Assembly (NCBI GenBank): GCA_964549375.1
Contig: CAZJWF010000002.1
Coordinates: forward strand, 23,592-87,591
Reading direction: 5' to 3'
Length of the DNA stretch: 64,000 nucleotides
DNA from: an uncultured Neomegalonema sp.
Lineage (GTDB): Bacteria; Pseudomonadota; Alphaproteobacteria; Rhodobacterales; Rhodobacteraceae
Position numbers and translations under genes: made by a program. A model generated the notes under the pieces. It saw only the letters and a program-made list of their open reading frames with translations. It made no database searches and was not told the origin of the DNA. Shown here piece after piece: positions 26,156 through 36,842 of the stretch (its first letter is position 1; each line of letters opens with the position of its first letter).

Positions 26156-26302
26156 CGCGTTTTCCTTTATGATGAGCATCCAAGTAGGATTCCGGCTCAC
26201 CGACTTCAATCCACCCGCACCGAACTCACATCGTTTTGAGCAGATCAGAAAATTTTCCATTGACATTCGTTCTTTTTATGTTCTAGTTAGCGGTGTTATT
26301 TT

Positions 26303-26893
26303 TTGACGGAAGGCAAAAGCAGCGTGGACTTCGAACAGACCTTGGAAACTCAGCGGCTTCGCCTGCTCCGCATTGTCGCGGCGCTGGTTGTTGCGGTGGG
26401 AGTTCTGGCTTTAGGTCCGGTATCACGCGGTTTTTCGGAGTGGACCCTTGGTTTTGTCGGATCGATTTTGTCGCGCGCTGAGGCAGCAGCACGGTATTTA
26501 TTGATTGCGCAGGCCCGTTCGATGGTTTTTCGCAGCAATTCTGATCTCGACACCCATCAGATATTCGAGATGTTTGCCCCAGATTTGGCCCCGGACGAAA
26601 CGGATGTTTCGTTGTCAGAGTACCAGAGGCGGCTAAAGGCATTGCATGCCGTGCTGATGGACTTGCCGTTCCATGCCGCGCGTTTGCTTCGCCGGTTCGA
26701 GAAACAGATGCGCCGAGCGGCGGGATCGAAAGGTCAGCTTTCACGCCTCCCTCATCTCGACCAATCGCCTTTATTCTGCGCGTGGCATCTGACTGCCAAC
26801 CGTATTGAGCGTCCGCCTGACAAATGCGCGACAATAACACCTCGGATCGTTTCAACTCCCTCCGGTTTCCGGGCGGGAGGCGTAGTCGGTTGA
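26303..26893 (+). CDS. Hypothetical protein (one TM segment)
   Basis: 196-aa ORF with a more protein-like translation than the antisense 190-aa ORF (26283..26855). No family recognised. Confidence 0.4.
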   Translation: MTEGKSSVDFEQTLETQRLRLLRIVAALVVAVGVLALGPVSRGFSEWTLGFVGSILSRAEAAARYLLIAQARSMVFRSNSDLDTHQIFEMFAPDLAPDETDVSLSEYQRRLKALHAVLMDLPFHAARLLRRFEKQMRRAAGSKGQLSRLPHLDQSPLFCAWHLTANRIERPPDKCATITPRIVSTPSGFRAGGVVG

Positions 26894-29554: not shown

Positions 29555-30304
29555 ATGCTGGTCGCAGAAAAATTTAGTACACCCGTCGAAATTCAACGTC
29601 GCGCGTCCAACCGTGTGCCGTACATTGAACCTTGTTTCGCCCAAACCGACAACCACTCGCTGTGGGTAAAATCCATCAATTTGTCTGAAGGTGGAATGTG
29701 CATCGCCGTTGATCGCCTTGGCGTTCTAAAACGGGGGACAGGTGTCGCAATTTTTATCCAAAATTTTCCGGCACTCGATGCGCGAGTCCAATGGACTCGT
29801 GCGAATATTGCGGGCCTCAAGTTCACCTCTCCCATTGAAGAAAATCCAGATTTCATTGCGCTGATCGAACGCCTTAAATCTGGCGAACCCGCCTGGTTGC
29901 CCGTTGCAAAGCCTGACATCGACTCCGTTGTTGGGCACAGTATCCACGACCTGCTCAACCCAAAGTCAAAGGTGCCTGAACCCACGGTAACGGAAGTCGC
30001 CACGCAACCACTCGCCCAAGTCCGCGCGCATGAACGTCTGAATTTCGACGAAACCTGTTGGGTTGAAACCGATAAGCGGAAGTTCCAAGCACAAGGAATG
30101 AATATCTCGGAGGGCGGAATGTGCCTGCGCCTGAACGGCTTAGGAACCATGCATAATGGCACAGATGTTCGCATTACCTTCGAGGGTCATTCACCCATCG
30201 ACGCCACGCTGCGCTGGAGCAAAGAGCGCGTGATGGGGTTTCAATTCCTGACGCCAATCAAAGATCATCCCATCCTGCGGGATCGAACACCAATTGAGGA
30301 CTGA
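29555..30304 (+). CDS. Tandem PilZ domain protein (putative c-di-GMP receptor)
   Basis: ATG 29555 preceded by GAGGGA. Domain 1 has RRASNR and NLSEGG. Domain 2 has RAHER and NISEGG. These are the RxxxR and D/NxSxxG PilZ motifs. Confidence 0.8.
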   Translation: MLVAEKFSTPVEIQRRASNRVPYIEPCFAQTDNHSLWVKSINLSEGGMCIAVDRLGVLKRGTGVAIFIQNFPALDARVQWTRANIAGLKFTSPIEENPDFIALIERLKSGEPAWLPVAKPDIDSVVGHSIHDLLNPKSKVPEPTVTEVATQPLAQVRAHERLNFDETCWVETDKRKFQAQGMNISEGGMCLRLNGLGTMHNGTDVRITFEGHSPIDATLRWSKERVMGFQFLTPIKDHPILRDRTPIED

Positions 30305-30310
30305 ATAATA

Positions 30311-30358
30311 GGCAGGAAGAGGTGCGCCTGCTCCAGCGCGCCAATCCTGCCGTTTTTT
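30311..30358 (+). terminator. Rho-independent terminator after the PilZ gene
   Basis: GGCAGG...CCTGCC outer stem with an imperfect GC-rich inner stem, followed by GTTTTTTCT. Confidence 0.6.
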
Positions 30359-30572
30359 CTACGTTTCAATGCCTCAACCGATGTCCACCCATTTGCGCCA
30401 GTTGGCGGTAGCATACCGTTCGGCTGTGAGGATTGTTGGTCCACTATTCGTCTGCATTCTGATCACATATTCTCGCGAATTCGTGGACCCGTAGGCAATT
30501 ATTGCTATGCGTTCTATTATCTGATTGATCAGTGGCACTATTGCCATCGAAAAGTCCGGATAGTTACCCGCG

Positions 30573-32507
30573 ATGAAAAAAATCGAACTGTGCGAATCTG
30601 AAATCAATATCCCCTCCCTCCGGAGGGCTTCATTTCAGAGCGACGTACGGTCCAACGAAGACCGCCATCTAGCGATCTGCCTTACCCTCTACAATGAGCC
30701 ATCCAATCTGCTTAAGTCATCATTGGATTCAGTGATCCACAGTCTGGATACTTTGAATCGCAAAAATGCTCATTATCGCCGGGCAACCATCTCAATTATT
30801 GCGGATGGCGAATCTGAAGTTTCACATTCTACCCGCGCGTATCTCAAAACACTTGGCCTACAGCCATGCGCCCATTCACTTACAGATTTTGATGGCAGCG
30901 TTCGGGCAACCCTGCTGTCCCCTTCTAATCCGTCTGCTTCGCTGACGCGCCGCAGCCCGTCGGGAATGGAAATTAGGCTACAAGTCGTCACCAAAGCCCA
31001 AAACGCGGGAAAGTTGGACTCGCACTGGTGGTTCTATCAAGAAATTTGCCCTCCACTTCGCCCGGATTATTGCTTTCAGATCGACGCAGGAACGGTCCTA
31101 TCGCCGAATGCATTTTTCGAGATTTGCGACGAGTTCGATGGAAATCCTGAGACCGCCGGAATAGCTAGCAACGTTATGATCTCGCCGCCGAAAGACGGCA
31201 ACTTGCTGGAATGCTTCCAGTGCGGGGATTTTGCGGTACAGAAAACGATCCGTTGGCCTTCAGAGGTATTCAGCGGTTTTCTCTCCGTCATTCCCGGTCA
31301 GTTTAGCGGTCTGCGTTGGCGGGCTTTTTCTGAGCAAAACTCGAACAACGATCCCTCTCCGAAGGACCGATACTTGCGCGGGCAAACCTGCGATAGCGCG
31401 ACCGAACGCATGATGTATCTGTCTGAAGATCGTATCCTGGGATTTGAGCTGGCGACAGAACCGGACACAATTAATCGGCTTGACTTTGCCCCGAAGGCGG
31501 ACTGCCACACCGACACCTGCAATACCCTTTCAGAGCTGTTGCAGCAGCGGCGCCGTTGGTTGAATGGTAGCTTGTTCTGCCGAAGTTGGATGATCCACAA
31601 AATTCTCAGCATCTTCTCTGATCAGACTCAACCACGATTGAACCGGACCCGCTTTGCTCCGGCATTGTTGAACTTGTGCGTGCAGCATATGTTGGAATGG
31701 TTCCTGCCGTTGCTGAACATCCTACTGCTTGCTGTGACGTGGAATTCGCTGGGAACTCTGGTATCGCCAATATCGGCGACTGCTATTTTCGCCGCATTGG
31801 CGGGAATTTGGGTGCTTCCGACTGCACTAGCTTTGTCCGGTAAAATTGAACGCCTAAGTCCGCAGCATGTTCAAATTTTACTCCAACTAGTGAAAACGGT
31901 CTTCTTTACGATCATCGCGATCAACCTGGTGAGCTTAGCGCAGAAGTCAGATTCTTTTGCGTATCTCTACTATCTATCCATGCCGTTCGCATTGACTGCA
32001 GGTGCGTTCATTGGTGCATTTATCTCAAATCGGACTTTGGTGAAACATCTGAGATCGTCGATCCTGACATTTATCTCTCTCGCGCCTTCTATGTGGCTGA
32101 TGATGTCGTCTTACGCGTTCTTCAACCTTCATGACGGCAGTTGGGGGACCAAAGGACTTTGCCAAAAAGATGCGTGTGCGGCAGGTACAGAGCAGGACAT
32201 CGCAAGACAGTTCAAACGTTTGCGGTTGACGATCGTGTCGGCGTGGCTCGCCTCTAACTTGATCTTAGCGGTTGTCTTAGTGCAAACAGCGGGAATGAGC
32301 ATTGCGCTGACAGTTGCAGCCAGCCTTCAGATCCTAATGATCGCAACGGGGATGATGGGCGTTGTTTCAGCTAAGATGAAACGGTCTGGAGAGCCGCTGT
32401 CGAAAATCCAAAGCGCGGCACATATAACTTGGCGGCGTATCCTCAAATCATTCGTGCGCCGTCCCAGATACTTTCCCGCCGGGAACGACGCACATAAGTT
32501 GCCTTAG
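30573..32507 (+). CDS. Family-2 glycosyltransferase with eukaryotic chitin-synthase-type motif set (chitin-synthase-like processive polysaccharide synthase), multi-TM C-terminus
   Basis: ICLTLYNE (30675..30698), KLDSHWWF, QIDAGT, FLSVIPGQFSGLRW, YLSEDRILGFEL (EDR at 31425..31433), QRRRWLNGS (31545..), HDGSWGTKG (32139..32156). Several hydrophobic helices after residue 360. Confidence 0.85.
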   Translation: MKKIELCESEINIPSLRRASFQSDVRSNEDRHLAICLTLYNEPSNLLKSSLDSVIHSLDTLNRKNAHYRRATISIIADGESEVSHSTRAYLKTLGLQPCAHSLTDFDGSVRATLLSPSNPSASLTRRSPSGMEIRLQVVTKAQNAGKLDSHWWFYQEICPPLRPDYCFQIDAGTVLSPNAFFEICDEFDGNPETAGIASNVMISPPKDGNLLECFQCGDFAVQKTIRWPSEVFSGFLSVIPGQFSGLRWRAFSEQNSNNDPSPKDRYLRGQTCDSATERMMYLSEDRILGFELATEPDTINRLDFAPKADCHTDTCNTLSELLQQRRRWLNGSLFCRSWMIHKILSIFSDQTQPRLNRTRFAPALLNLCVQHMLEWFLPLLNILLLAVTWNSLGTLVSPISATAIFAALAGIWVLPTALALSGKIERLSPQHVQILLQLVKTVFFTIIAINLVSLAQKSDSFAYLYYLSMPFALTAGAFIGAFISNRTLVKHLRSSILTFISLAPSMWLMMSSYAFFNLHDGSWGTKGLCQKDACAAGTEQDIARQFKRLRLTIVSAWLASNLILAVVLVQTAGMSIALTVAASLQILMIATGMMGVVSAKMKRSGEPLSKIQSAAHITWRRILKSFVRRPRYFPAGNDAHKLP

Positions 32508-32520
32508 CGGTCGTGAGACT

Positions 32521-33195
32521 CTACTGCACTTTTTGACCCGCAAGATCGCAATAGGCACCGCCGGTATTCATCTCCCAGCCCCGTGTTAGAAACTGTCCGC
32601 TTGATTGGCGTAGGTTGAGGATGCCGATGTGAACTTCGGCGCCGGTGAGGCTATTTTGAGCCGCCATGACATAAGTCACGACACTTCCGTTTCGACGCAG
32701 TTCCAGAATTTCGCCCTGACCTTTGAAAGAGTCACCAGAACGGAATGAGCTTTCGCCATCCAAACCACCTGTCGCAGCAACTTTGAAGAGCTGCTCACTT
32801 TGCGCCTCGACATCTTGGACGAAGAAGTTGACGTCACAGGTCGCCTTATGCGCCCAACGACCCGCTAACGCCGTGTCGCTCAATCCGGGCAAAGCATCAT
32901 TCGCTCGGTCACGCCACGCTGTTTTATCTGCGACTTGCGGTGTCCATGCTTCGCCGGTTTCTTGCTGGTAGAGGCGCGCCGCACGATCAGCAAACCGACC
33001 ATTCGTAAAGTGCAGCAAATAGGCAGAGATAATTCCGGTATTTTCAGTCCGTTCGGCGGCGGCCCAAAAACTCTCTTCCGCCTGCAGGAGGTCATTTGTC
33101 GCGGCGATGCCGTGATTGGACGCGGCAAAAACGAAAAAGCCTGCGATCAGTGTCGGCAAGGTAAAGCGAAGCCGTTTCAAATGATGTCTCCTCAA
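32521..33195 (-). CDS. Secreted hypothetical protein
   Basis: N-terminal signal-like LPTLIAGFFVFAASNHGIAA. No catalytic motif recognised. Convergent with the synthase gene, with 13 nt between the stop codons. Confidence 0.6.
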   Translation of the reverse strand: MRRHHLKRLRFTLPTLIAGFFVFAASNHGIAATNDLLQAEESFWAAAERTENTGIISAYLLHFTNGRFADRAARLYQQETGEAWTPQVADKTAWRDRANDALPGLSDTALAGRWAHKATCDVNFFVQDVEAQSEQLFKVAATGGLDGESSFRSGDSFKGQGEILELRRNGSVVTYVMAAQNSLTGAEVHIGILNLRQSSGQFLTRGWEMNTGGAYCDLAGQKVQ

Positions 33196-35445: not shown

Positions 35446-35841
<396 letters not shown>

Positions 35842-35842
35842 T

Positions 35843-35859
35843 TAGCATTAACCGTGCCA
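35843..35859 (-). promoter_or_regulatory. Candidate sigma54 (-24/-12) promoter for glnB-glnA
   Basis: The minus strand reads TGGCAC-GGTTA-ATGCT (consensus TGGCAC-N5-TTGCW). GG and GC spacing is correct. About 60 nt upstream of the glnB ATG. Confidence 0.5.
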
Positions 35860-35975
35860 TATTTTTATGTGTTGTTTTTCAATAGATTAGTCAAAATAAG
35901 CAGAATTATAGCGCTTATTTTTTAGGCAGTGTGATGAAAAATTAGGCGGATTACACGTTGTATTGCAAGAAAACT

Positions 35976-35992
35976 GCGGCAATTTTTGCCGC
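35976..35992. repeat. Perfect palindrome GCGGCAA-TTT-TTGCCGC (possible enhancer-binding-protein site or hairpin)
   Basis: Read directly from the sequence. The centre lies about 125 bp upstream of the candidate -24 element, with an AT-rich spacer between. Confidence 0.4.
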
Positions 35993-36541
35993 TCAACGAA
36001 GCCATACCGCCTGACCCACCCTCGGGCCACTACTGCGTTGATCGCCGCCACGACGAACGTCCTTCGTGCTCTGCCGAACGAACCGCTTTCGATGCGAGCC
36101 ACCATCAATCTCTTCACGAACCGGGCATTCAAATCAAAGGATATGTAACGGAGATTACCGACTCAGTTCCGAGTTCGCAAAACCGCAAAATCGGCGCCCC
36201 GTATCATTAGAGATGTGAACTGCTTCACAATTAAACAACAGCAGAGCGGCGGGGAAAATCTCGGCTTAATAGCAATAAGTTGTTCGCGTCGAGAGCACCG
36301 CGATTCCCAACAGTGATCGTCTTGTGAATGGCCACCCCCGGCATCAAGGTCGGGTTCAAAACCCTCTATGCCGCTTGAATCAATTCAATAATTCTTTGCC
36401 AATGAAATTCGAGCATCGAAACCCGACAGCAATATTTTTCTGACATACTCGTTAGCAGGTGAGGCACAAGCCGGTTGGCGTGGATTTTGTACTTGGAATG
36501 CACGCTAATCGGGGTAGGCTGATGAAATCAGCGGGGGCTAA

Positions 36542-36748
36542 ATGATGACTACTAAATTAGGCAAGCTTTTGGGTCGAAGTGCCGAAGGCACTGAAAAAGA
36601 GACAATCGGCGAGGACATGGTCCCTTCGCCAGACGCGCTAGCGCAAAGATCTGCTCTTTCCGACGCCACAGATTTTTCGCATCCGAAATCGTCCACTGGG
36701 CCTTTTTCCAGCATAGCTCGTGCGCCTGTACGCGACTTTACTGGTTAA
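36542..36748 (+). CDS. Possible small hypothetical protein (68 aa)
   Basis: ATG preceded by GCGGGGG (SD-like) and a 6-bp hairpin. The translation is low-complexity or disordered. No family recognised. Confidence 0.2.
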   Translation: MMTTKLGKLLGRSAEGTEKETIGEDMVPSPDALAQRSALSDATDFSHPKSSTGPFSSIARAPVRDFTG

Positions 36749-36842
36749 GAACCCGTAAAGCGGAATTCTGCTGCCATTGACACTTCACGTGTACACGGGC
36801 AATCCATGATGCGTGGATTGAGACCGTGCGGGGTTAGATTTC

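Follow-up and report, generated by a model that had tools for sequence, protein, structure and literature searches.

A bacterial division 1-type chitin synthase gene with a clade-wide difference in its acceptor gate and a small secreted partner in a relative of Neomegalonema

Chitin is usually regarded as a eukaryotic polymer. The question raised by the DNA considered here, a stretch of 64,000 nucleotides from an uncultured Neomegalonema sp. (contig CAZJWF010000002.1, referred to below as the window), is what a gene with the motif series of a eukaryotic chitin synthase is doing in an alphaproteobacterium, and what its product would be. The gene stands among bacterial housekeeping genes, which include glnA, glnB, ABC transporters, a photolyase, a cyclopropane-fatty-acid synthase, yidC and an aspartokinase. 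As detailed below, the encoded protein has the fold and the catalytic residues of the solved eukaryotic enzymes, together with an acceptor gate that differs from theirs throughout a bacterial clade. By analogy with those enzymes, it would be an inner-membrane synthase that makes a beta-1,4-linked N-acetylglucosamine (GlcNAc), or chitin-like, chain and exports it to the periplasm, a reading to which we give a probability of roughly 0.6.

Family, fold and catalytic residues of the synthase

The gene and the principal parts of its product are as follows.

30573-32507, + strand: bacterial-clade division-1-type chitin synthase gene (ATG start, 644 residues; Pfam, PDB sequence, AlphaFold2 and Foldseek comparisons)
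30660-31532, + strand: cytoplasmic GT-A catalytic domain, about residues 30-320 (residue-by-residue alignment to the Phytophthora sojae enzyme, PsChs1)
31425-31433, + strand: EDR motif, E285-D286-R287, with D286 the predicted catalytic base (invariant in 59 of 59 sequences; role of PsChs1 D496)
31545-31559, + strand: QRRRW, residues 325-329, on the interface helix, with a likely part in diphosphate binding and acceptor-sugar stacking (invariant; roles from homologs)
31635-32453, + strand: membrane domain, about residues 355-627 (AlphaFold2 secondary structure, hydrophobic segments and structural alignment to chitin synthases)
32139-32156, + strand: SWGTKG loop, residues 523-528, between two groups of membrane helices (nearly invariant in the alignment of 59 sequences)

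Along the open reading frame (ORF) the motifs run in the order ICLTLYNE (residues 35-42), QNAGKLDSHWWF (143-154), QIDAGT (169-174), QCGDF (216-220), FLSVIPGQFSGLRW (236-249), YLSEDRILGFEL (282-293), TDT..QQRRRWLNGS (313-333) and FNLHDGSWGTKG (517-528). A first-pass annotation, made from the letters of the sequence, had recognized in this series the blocks of fungal chitin synthases, and all of the motifs that it quoted are present, with the residues and in the order given there. The Pfam model Chitin_synth_1 (PF01644) matches residues 39-188 over its full length (model positions 1-163 of 163) at 71.8 bits and E=8.5e-20, well clear of its gathering cut-off of 25 bits. Weaker matches are found to Glyco_trans_2_3 (49.3 bits) and Chitin_synth_2 (40.7 bits), and Cellulose_synt gives no Pfam match at E<=1. 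The sole NCBIfam match is to PgaC_IcaA (TIGR03937), at 18.2 bits against an equivalog cut-off of 422.3. When the protein is searched against the sequences of PDB chains, it returns eukaryotic chitin synthases only, with E values from 1.6e-35 to 5e-33: PsChs1 (7wjm), Candida albicans Chs2 (CaChs2, 7stl) and S. cerevisiae Chs1 (ScChs1, 7xs6). Each of these matches is a single collinear alignment that covers residues 31-548 of the synthase (230-766 of the target in 7wjm).

The structural comparison gives the same picture. The AlphaFold2 model of the synthase, built from 59 homologs, has a predicted local distance difference test score (pLDDT) of 90.2 and a predicted template modelling score (pTM) of 0.88. 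The best 20 Foldseek matches of this model in the PDB are all chitin synthases, with template modelling (TM) scores of 0.70-0.74 and E values from 4e-28 to 3e-23, and in the model the alignment to them spans 630-700 columns, the whole membrane part included. The next matches are hyaluronan synthase, at a TM score of 0.38, and the bacterial and plant BcsA/CesA proteins, at about 0.3-0.36. The resemblance to the eukaryotic division 1 chitin synthases is real and far beyond chance. Neither profile nor structure thus places an ordinary family of bacterial glycosyltransferase family 2 (GT2) ahead of the chitin synthases, and the motifs do not fall out of line when they are properly aligned. The view that this protein is far nearer to the eukaryotic division 1 enzymes than to BcsA, PgaC, NodC or hyaluronan synthase is borne out by Pfam, NCBIfam, the PDB and Foldseek alike. 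With BcsA, PgaC/IcaA, NodC and hyaluronan synthase it shares the GT2 GT-A fold, the D,D,D,QxxRW signature and the coupling of synthesis to translocation, but it matches them far more weakly, the TM scores of BcsA being 0.31-0.35. As had been noted on the first pass, no PilZ domain is fused to it, on a Pfam scan of the 644-residue protein.

The roles of individual residues in binding uridine, metal and diphosphate and in catalysis are taken from the solved eukaryotic enzymes, Chen et al. 2022 being among the sources (PMC9556331, PMC10409773). Conservation was counted in an alignment of 59 sequences, 48 of bacterial type and 11 of eukaryote type. On alignment to PsChs1, the uridine-binding residues of the GT-A domain are T38-L-Y-N-E42, D78-G79, N144-A-G-K-L148 and D171-A-G-T174. 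Residues T38, Y40, N41, E42, D78, N144, K147, L148, D171, E285, D286 and R287 vary little or not at all in the family, as is also true of D314, Q325-W329 and S523-G528. The D,D,D,QxxRW signature is made up of D78, D171, D286 and Q325-R-R-R-W329, which correspond to D291, D382, D496 and QRKRW in PsChs1. Both the EDRIL and the QRRRW signatures of chitin synthases are present, and the position of the QxxEY signature reads QCGDF. In the loop of the SWGTKG type, function is lost in the mutants W742A of PsChs1 and W969A/G970A of ScChs1 (PMC9556331, PMC10409773). Room for the N-acetyl group of the donor is provided in PsChs1 by the small residues S357, T385 and L412, which are histidines in BcsA (Chen et al.; PMC9556331, PMC10409773). 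Their counterparts here, from the alignment to 7wjm, are G146, T174 and V201, all of them small; in the 48 bacterial sequences G146 never varies and T174 hardly does.

In fold, motif order, donor and catalytic residues, QRRRW, SWGTKG and membrane channel, the synthase is therefore like PsChs1, CaChs2 and ScChs1, with membrane helices 362-517 and 539-627 predicted to form the channel for the polymer. It differs from them in its level of identity, around 20-25%, and in the absence of the N-terminal domain: Chitin_synth_1N (PF08407) finds no match in the protein, which has just 30 residues ahead of the catalytic domain. It would also differ in its location, in that it would sit in the inner membrane of a bacterium and deliver its product to the periplasm.

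The acceptor gate and the bacterial clade

Two elements of the acceptor gate are of particular concern.

31218-31232, + strand: QCGDF, residues 216-220, which takes the place of QxxEY on interface helix 1, by the acceptor site and the mouth of the channel (aligned to PsChs1 QHFEY, 429-433)
31287-31301, + strand: VIPGQ, residues 239-243, gate-lock (switch) loop, counterpart of VLPGA (from the alignment; role of the loop from solved homologs)

In PsChs1, the QHFEY sequence lies on interface helix 1 at the entrance to the channel, where a salt bridge joins E432 to R536 of QRKRW and Y433 is packed against W539; alanine at either E432 or Y433 impairs activity (PMC9556331, PMC10409773). In ScChs1, the equivalent E653 and Y654 are part of the acceptor site for GlcNAc (PMC9556331, PMC10409773), so that the label of acceptor motif, given to QCGDF on the first pass, is a fair one. 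The description of it as a degenerate motif in a single protein does not hold. Of the 48 bacterial-type sequences, all have Q, 41 have D and 39 have F at these positions, whereas all 11 of the eukaryote type have E and Y. The sequence QCGDF thus follows a clade consensus, Qxx[D][F], that is reached by the conservative changes of E to D and of Y to F. Since D retains the charge of E, and F the aromatic ring of Y, we infer that D219 with R326, and F220 with W329, can fill the roles of E432/R536 and Y433/W539.

Other differences around the gate are likewise properties of the clade. The gate loop is VxPGQ in the bacterial type, with Q at position 243 in 48/48, and VLPGA in the eukaryote type, with A in 11/11. 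Position 316 is the cysteine of TDxC in 48/48 bacterial sequences and the proline of TDVP in 10/11 of the eukaryote type, while position 169 is the glutamine of QxD in 48/48 and the leucine of LLD in 10/11. These three residues, Q169, Q243 and C316, are shared by all 48 bacterial-type sequences and occur in none of the 11 of the eukaryote type. W228, which corresponds to yeast K662 on the floor of interface helix 1, is tryptophan in 40/48 and lysine in 11/11. At Q223 and K224 (yeast S657 and N658), glutamine and lysine are the commonest bacterial residues, against S/A and then S/N/T in the eukaryote type. At E80, the arginine of the DGR motif has been lost in the bacterial clade (R in 10/11 of the eukaryote type). 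Against PsChs1, CaChs2 and ScChs1, the window protein accordingly reads QCGDF for QxxEY, VIPGQ for VLPGA, TDTC for TDVP and QID for LLD, with W228 in place of a lysine. On the alignment, Q169, Q243, C316 and W228 tell the bacterial clade from the eukaryotic division 1 enzymes, and this list of fixed gate differences is new here. The earlier warning that the polymer may be something other than chitin is upheld by a gate remodelled at several positions, although as a matter for the whole clade and not for this protein by itself.

Bacterial members of the division 1 group are not in themselves new. They were described by Gonçalves et al. in 2016 (BMC Evol Biol 16:252, PMC5122149) in around 12 bacteria, among them Pectobacterium, Dickeya, Brenneria, Agrobacterium vitis, Pseudomonas cichorii, Teredinibacter and Cellvibrio. 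The same authors found these members to have a short N-terminus without Chitin_synth_1N and, in some cases, a fusion to an aminotransferase; most share an operon with genes for DUF1800, DUF1501 and a sugar epimerase, and some are inside secondary-metabolite clusters (PMC5122149). They stress that the activity of the bacterial enzymes had not been assayed there (PMC5122149), and in a review of 2025 they still appear without a functional annotation. By its sequence, the window synthase belongs to this described family, as a new and divergent member.

A search for homologs returned 70, with Chitin_synth_1N in none of the bacterial ones, and a genome scan returned 60 loci of the family. These come from Alpha-, Beta- and Gammaproteobacteria, Desulfobacteraceae, Geobacter, Bacteroidota, Cyanobacteria and one Desulfosporosinus. 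The last of these (L060), a member of the Firmicutes, carries a distant homolog at 24% identity, by which the clade extends past the Gram-negative phyla. Unrooted neighbour-joining trees of 59 and 66 sequences separate the bacterial type from the eukaryote type with a bootstrap of 100/100 in each. The window synthase falls on the bacterial side with Teredinibacter (P0040) and Pectobacterium/Brenneria (P0047-49), where it has a subclade to itself, supported at a bootstrap of 100; the sister group of this subclade includes Marinomonas (bootstrap 97). Across a clade of 45-99% identity, the reading frames are intact, at about 640 residues. Such a broad span of phyla, together with the clean separation from eukaryotes, means that the clade could be an old bacterial lineage and not the result of a recent transfer from a eukaryote.

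Compared with the published bacterial enzymes, the window protein is alike in lying on the same side of the bootstrap-100 split, in its short N-terminus without Chitin_synth_1N, and in the signatures QxDxGT, Qxx[D][F], xPGQ and TDxC. It differs in its placement in the distinct subclade, at 23-33% identity to the published members, and in its host, which is a relative of Neomegalonema and no plant pathogen. The surroundings of the gene are also different, in that the window locus has neither the DUF1800/DUF1501/epimerase operon nor an aminotransferase fusion nor a cluster of non-ribosomal peptide synthetase (NRPS) genes, and the synthase is paired instead with a secreted beta-barrel protein that is found in its clade only.

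Elsewhere in the family, DUF1800 and DUF1501 occur in 10-12 other loci, and NRPS genes lie within 6 kb of the synthase gene in 16 of the 60 (L008, L016, L017, L019, L024, L025, L027, L029, L030, L038, L041, L048, L049, L052, L056 and L059). At L027, an NRPS of 2557 residues ends 121 bp upstream of the synthase gene. This proximity extends the association with secondary metabolism that is known for Teredinibacter and Cellvibrio (PMC5122149). Two metagenome-assembled genomes (MAGs) hold two copies of the synthase each: L008 and L024 in NVXL01 (Alteromonadaceae), and L013 and L021 in the alphaproteobacterial CAVXVZ01.

The secreted partner, the PilZ gene and the surroundings

The features that flank the synthase are the following.

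32521-33195, - strand: co-inherited partner gene for a secreted protein of about 195 residues (adjacency, homolog set, AlphaFold2 and Foldseek)
30445-30572, + strand: about 130 bp upstream of the synthase, probably its own promoter or operator (alignment of the window, L001 and L062)
29555-30304, + strand: tandem PilZ protein, 249 residues (Pfam PilZ in two stretches; a neighbour, probably outside the system)
30311-30358, + strand: hairpin with a U6 run just past the PilZ gene, probably an intrinsic terminator (RNA fold)

In the genome scan, the nearest relatives of the synthase come from four MAGs labelled uncultured Neomegalonema sp., at 57-65% identity, and a copy with 99% protein identity is found in a public sequencing run. 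One of the relatives, L001, is syntenic with the window, with protein identities of 96% for glnA, 97% for P-II, and 92% each for the Cys/Met pyridoxal phosphate (PLP) enzyme and the ADH. The likely host genus, Neomegalonema, was formerly named Meganema and has been implicated in sludge bulking.

The partner gene is convergent with the synthase, with 13 bp between the two stop codons; in L002 the two genes overlap by 4 nt. This adjacent and convergent arrangement recurs in two unrelated genomic contexts, at the loci L001-L004 and L062-L065. As modelled by AlphaFold2 (pLDDT 85.6), the partner consists of a signal peptide, a short TPR-like helical part and an 8-stranded up-and-down beta-barrel, and has two invariant cysteines. 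It has no Pfam match, and Foldseek relates its barrel to generic 8-stranded barrels only (designed barrels, nitrobindin and lipocalins). Its 18 homologs are all at least 44% identical, and a profile search of 1.84 billion representatives yields one full-length cluster of the partner, along with matches of the N-terminal helices to a TPR-like repeat in unrelated large proteins. Judged by these searches, the partner family is restricted to the synthase subclade, in which it is the one constant companion of the enzyme. The synthase and partner are co-inherited, and it is on this account that the partner may, as a guess, bind or handle the product of the synthase in the periplasm. What is new here is the Neomegalonema-type subclade, in which synthase and partner form a two-gene cassette and the secreted partner is confined to the clade.

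The PilZ gene lies 269 bp upstream of the synthase on the same strand, and was missing from the neighbours listed in the first-pass annotation. The RxxxR and (D/N)xSxxG motif pairs that bind cyclic di-GMP (c-di-GMP) are both intact in its tandem PilZ protein. The gene stays next to the synthase in L001 and L062-L064, also where a further gene has entered upstream of it; these four loci are syntenic close relatives, so the adjacency counts as a single observation. PilZ homologs at 48% identity occur in the same Cys/Met-ADH-PilZ block on two contigs (L066 and L067) where no synthase follows, while the synthase subclade at 57% identity has another context, with MaoC, ribF and PRK upstream and a radical SAM gene downstream, and no such PilZ gene. 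The hairpin that follows the PilZ stop codon has a folding energy of -26.6 kcal/mol (z=-4.6, with 0/200 shuffles folding as well), and as predicted it is probably an intrinsic terminator, which with its U6 run separates PilZ from the synthase gene.

Downstream of this, only the part of the spacer nearest to the synthase is conserved among the window, L001 and L062, in the blocks GATCACAT..CTCGCGAA..GTGGACC.GTAGGCA..GTTCTATT, and the rest, next to PilZ, is not. The conserved 30445-30572 does not align with the L002/L004 subclade. A sigma-70-like match is found at 30492-30520, and the conserved region may be a promoter or operator of the synthase. Because of the synthase-free blocks, the terminator, and the limitation of conservation to the synthase-proximal 130 bp or so, the PilZ gene looks like part of an older gene order beside which the synthase cassette sits. 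The synthase probably does not belong with the BcsA/Alg44 type, as it has no fused PilZ and the adjacent PilZ gene also occurs without it and is followed by the terminator. As a regulator of the synthase, PilZ was rejected as unsupported, on the strength of the synthase-free PilZ blocks, the PilZ-free 57% subclade and the terminator. This argument against PilZ as a likely partner is new here.

Comparison of the window with L001 gives the following numbers of nonsynonymous substitutions per nonsynonymous site (dN).

glnA: 0.02
ADH and Cys/Met PLP enzyme: 0.05
PilZ: 0.10
YceI: 0.17
secreted partner: 0.25
synthase: 0.28

For the synthase, the proportion of synonymous sites that differ is 0.79, and as synonymous sites are saturated for all of the genes, the ratio of nonsynonymous to synonymous rates is qualitative only. 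In the block compared, constraint is weakest on the synthase and its partner, yet both are clearly under purifying selection, which for the synthase argues against a dead gene. No direct or inverted repeats flank the synthase-partner cassette, no plasmid-borne homolog is found in PLSDB, and the GC content is just slightly below that of the flanks.

A profile scan of the neighbourhood covered 41 of the approximately 60 ORFs in the window, these being the larger ones. Among them, no porin, TPR export protein, deacetylase, chitinase or other glycoside hydrolase, or diguanylate cyclase was found, and the DUF1800, DUF1501 and sugar epimerase operon was likewise not seen. The first-pass statement that no porin, deacetylase or hydrolase gene is near the synthase is accordingly sustained for these ORFs, and there are no BcsB or PgaA/B partners near it of the kind found in the BcsA and PgaC systems. 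An Rfam search of the window gave no regulatory RNA. At 26283-26893, two ORFs overlap on opposite strands, one of 190 residues (-) without a Pfam match and one of 196 residues (+). The gap of about 1 kb between glnB (P-II) and an ABC transporter gene, at 35785-36842, contains only an ORF of 81 residues and no Rfam match; the matching interval in L065 contains an MGS-domain gene and a gene for 83 residues.

A proposed function and its rivals

From family, fold and conserved residues we infer activity, product identity and chain length by way of the solved eukaryotic homologs, from which the steps of the mechanism are also drawn. The GT-A domain would bind UDP-GlcNAc, with the uridine in the pocket formed by T38-E42, D78, N144-L148 and D171-T174 and the diphosphate held by a divalent metal together with R328 and Q325. 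The non-reducing-end sugar of the acceptor would be stacked between P241 of VIPGQ and W329 of QRRRW, beside D219 and F220, and D286 of the EDR motif would deprotonate its 4-hydroxyl group. Inverting transfer at the anomeric carbon would then give a beta-1,4 link, and the growing chain would be pushed through the enzyme's own membrane channel, made up of helices from about 362 to 604, into the periplasm. The synthase gene would be expressed from its own promoter region, and the secreted beta-barrel protein encoded by the convergent gene may handle the product in the periplasm.

Several points weigh against this proposal. A literature search found no biochemical assay of any enzyme of the bacterial clade. 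The acceptor gate is unlike that of every characterised chitin synthase (D219, F220, W228, Q243, Q223/K224, Q169 and C316), and in ScChs1 the mutants K662M and S657F/N658F lose function (PMC9556331, PMC10409773), so the acceptor or the product could differ. Genes for outer-membrane export, a deacetylase and a chitinase are missing from the window ORFs scanned, and without export genes the exit of a polymer from the periplasm is hard to explain. The partner gene is convergent and not co-transcribed, and its link to the synthase therefore rests on co-inheritance in one clade.

Some of these points bear on two alternatives, each of which we regard as unlikely. The enzyme may work in the manner of NodC and make short chito-oligosaccharides, released or modified as signals or building blocks, with no long polymer formed. 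This possibility was raised for the clade by Gonçalves et al. (PMC5122149), and the NRPS neighbours of 16 of the 60 loci suggest small-molecule pathways in those lineages; the altered gate loop and floor of interface helix 1, as well as the absence of outer-membrane export machinery from the ORFs scanned, point in the same direction. The model of the synthase, however, keeps the full channel of the processive chitin synthases, as seen in the TM scores of 0.70-0.74 over 630-700 columns, the QRRRW and SWGTKG elements are retained, and the window locus is without NRPS or tailoring genes. Equally, the bacterial clade may use another donor or acceptor and make a polysaccharide other than chitin, as the clade-wide substitutions at Q243, W228, D219/F220, Q169 and C316 would allow, and as might fit those relatives that are fused to an aminotransferase or lie beside a sugar epimerase. 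What speaks for a chitin-like product over this alternative is the uridine pocket, which is as in chitin synthases, and the space for the N-acetyl group, which is kept by G146, T174 and V201; the changes of E to D and Y to F are conservative, and there is no gene for modifying sugar nucleotides at the window locus.

The remaining explanations concern the control and the survival of the gene. That the enzyme is an exopolysaccharide synthase under the control of c-di-GMP, with the tandem PilZ protein acting as a separate receptor (compare the PilZ domains of BcsA and Alg44), is suggested by the intact motifs and the same-strand position of a gene 269 bp away whose adjacency persists in L001 and L062-L064. 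We consider it quite improbable, given that those loci amount to one observation, that the PilZ relatives at 48% identity stand in a Cys/Met-ADH-PilZ block without a synthase, that the 57%-identity synthase clade occurs with its partner in another context without PilZ, and that a strong terminator follows the PilZ gene. Least probable is that the synthase is the inactive remnant of a horizontally acquired gene. Its nonsynonymous rate, 5 to 14 times that of the flanking housekeeping genes, and the lack of obvious pathway partners in the window could be read in that way; yet the frame is intact at about 640 residues over 45-99% identity, the catalytic residues are all invariant, its nonsynonymous sites have diverged far less than its saturated synonymous ones, and the promoter-proximal region is conserved. 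The synthesis and export of a chitin-like chain is thus the reading that we prefer. A bolder reading, which we hold to be unlikely, is that the clade, with its invariant Q169, Q243 and C316, its near-invariant W228 and its D/F form of QxxEY, is more than a simple chitin synthase and uses another primer or makes a modified or different beta-glycan, and that in the window subclade the synthase and its secreted partner form a minimal two-gene system for laying down a chitin-like structural polymer; the site of such a polymer could be the envelope, the septa or the filament surface of a filamentous sludge bacterium.

The window locus is not a new kind of system. Genes for chitin synthases of the eukaryote type have been known in bacteria since 2016, and no report of a product was found in the literature. 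The locus is about the simplest version of such a system, with a short, self-contained synthase, a probable promoter region of its own and one small secreted partner, set among housekeeping genes, and this simplicity suits it well to expression work and to analysis of what it makes. The clade-wide differences in the gate supply concrete mutations that bear on the identity of the product or on the length of its chain. A chitin-like surface polymer in a genus associated with sludge bulking would, if true, be of practical interest.

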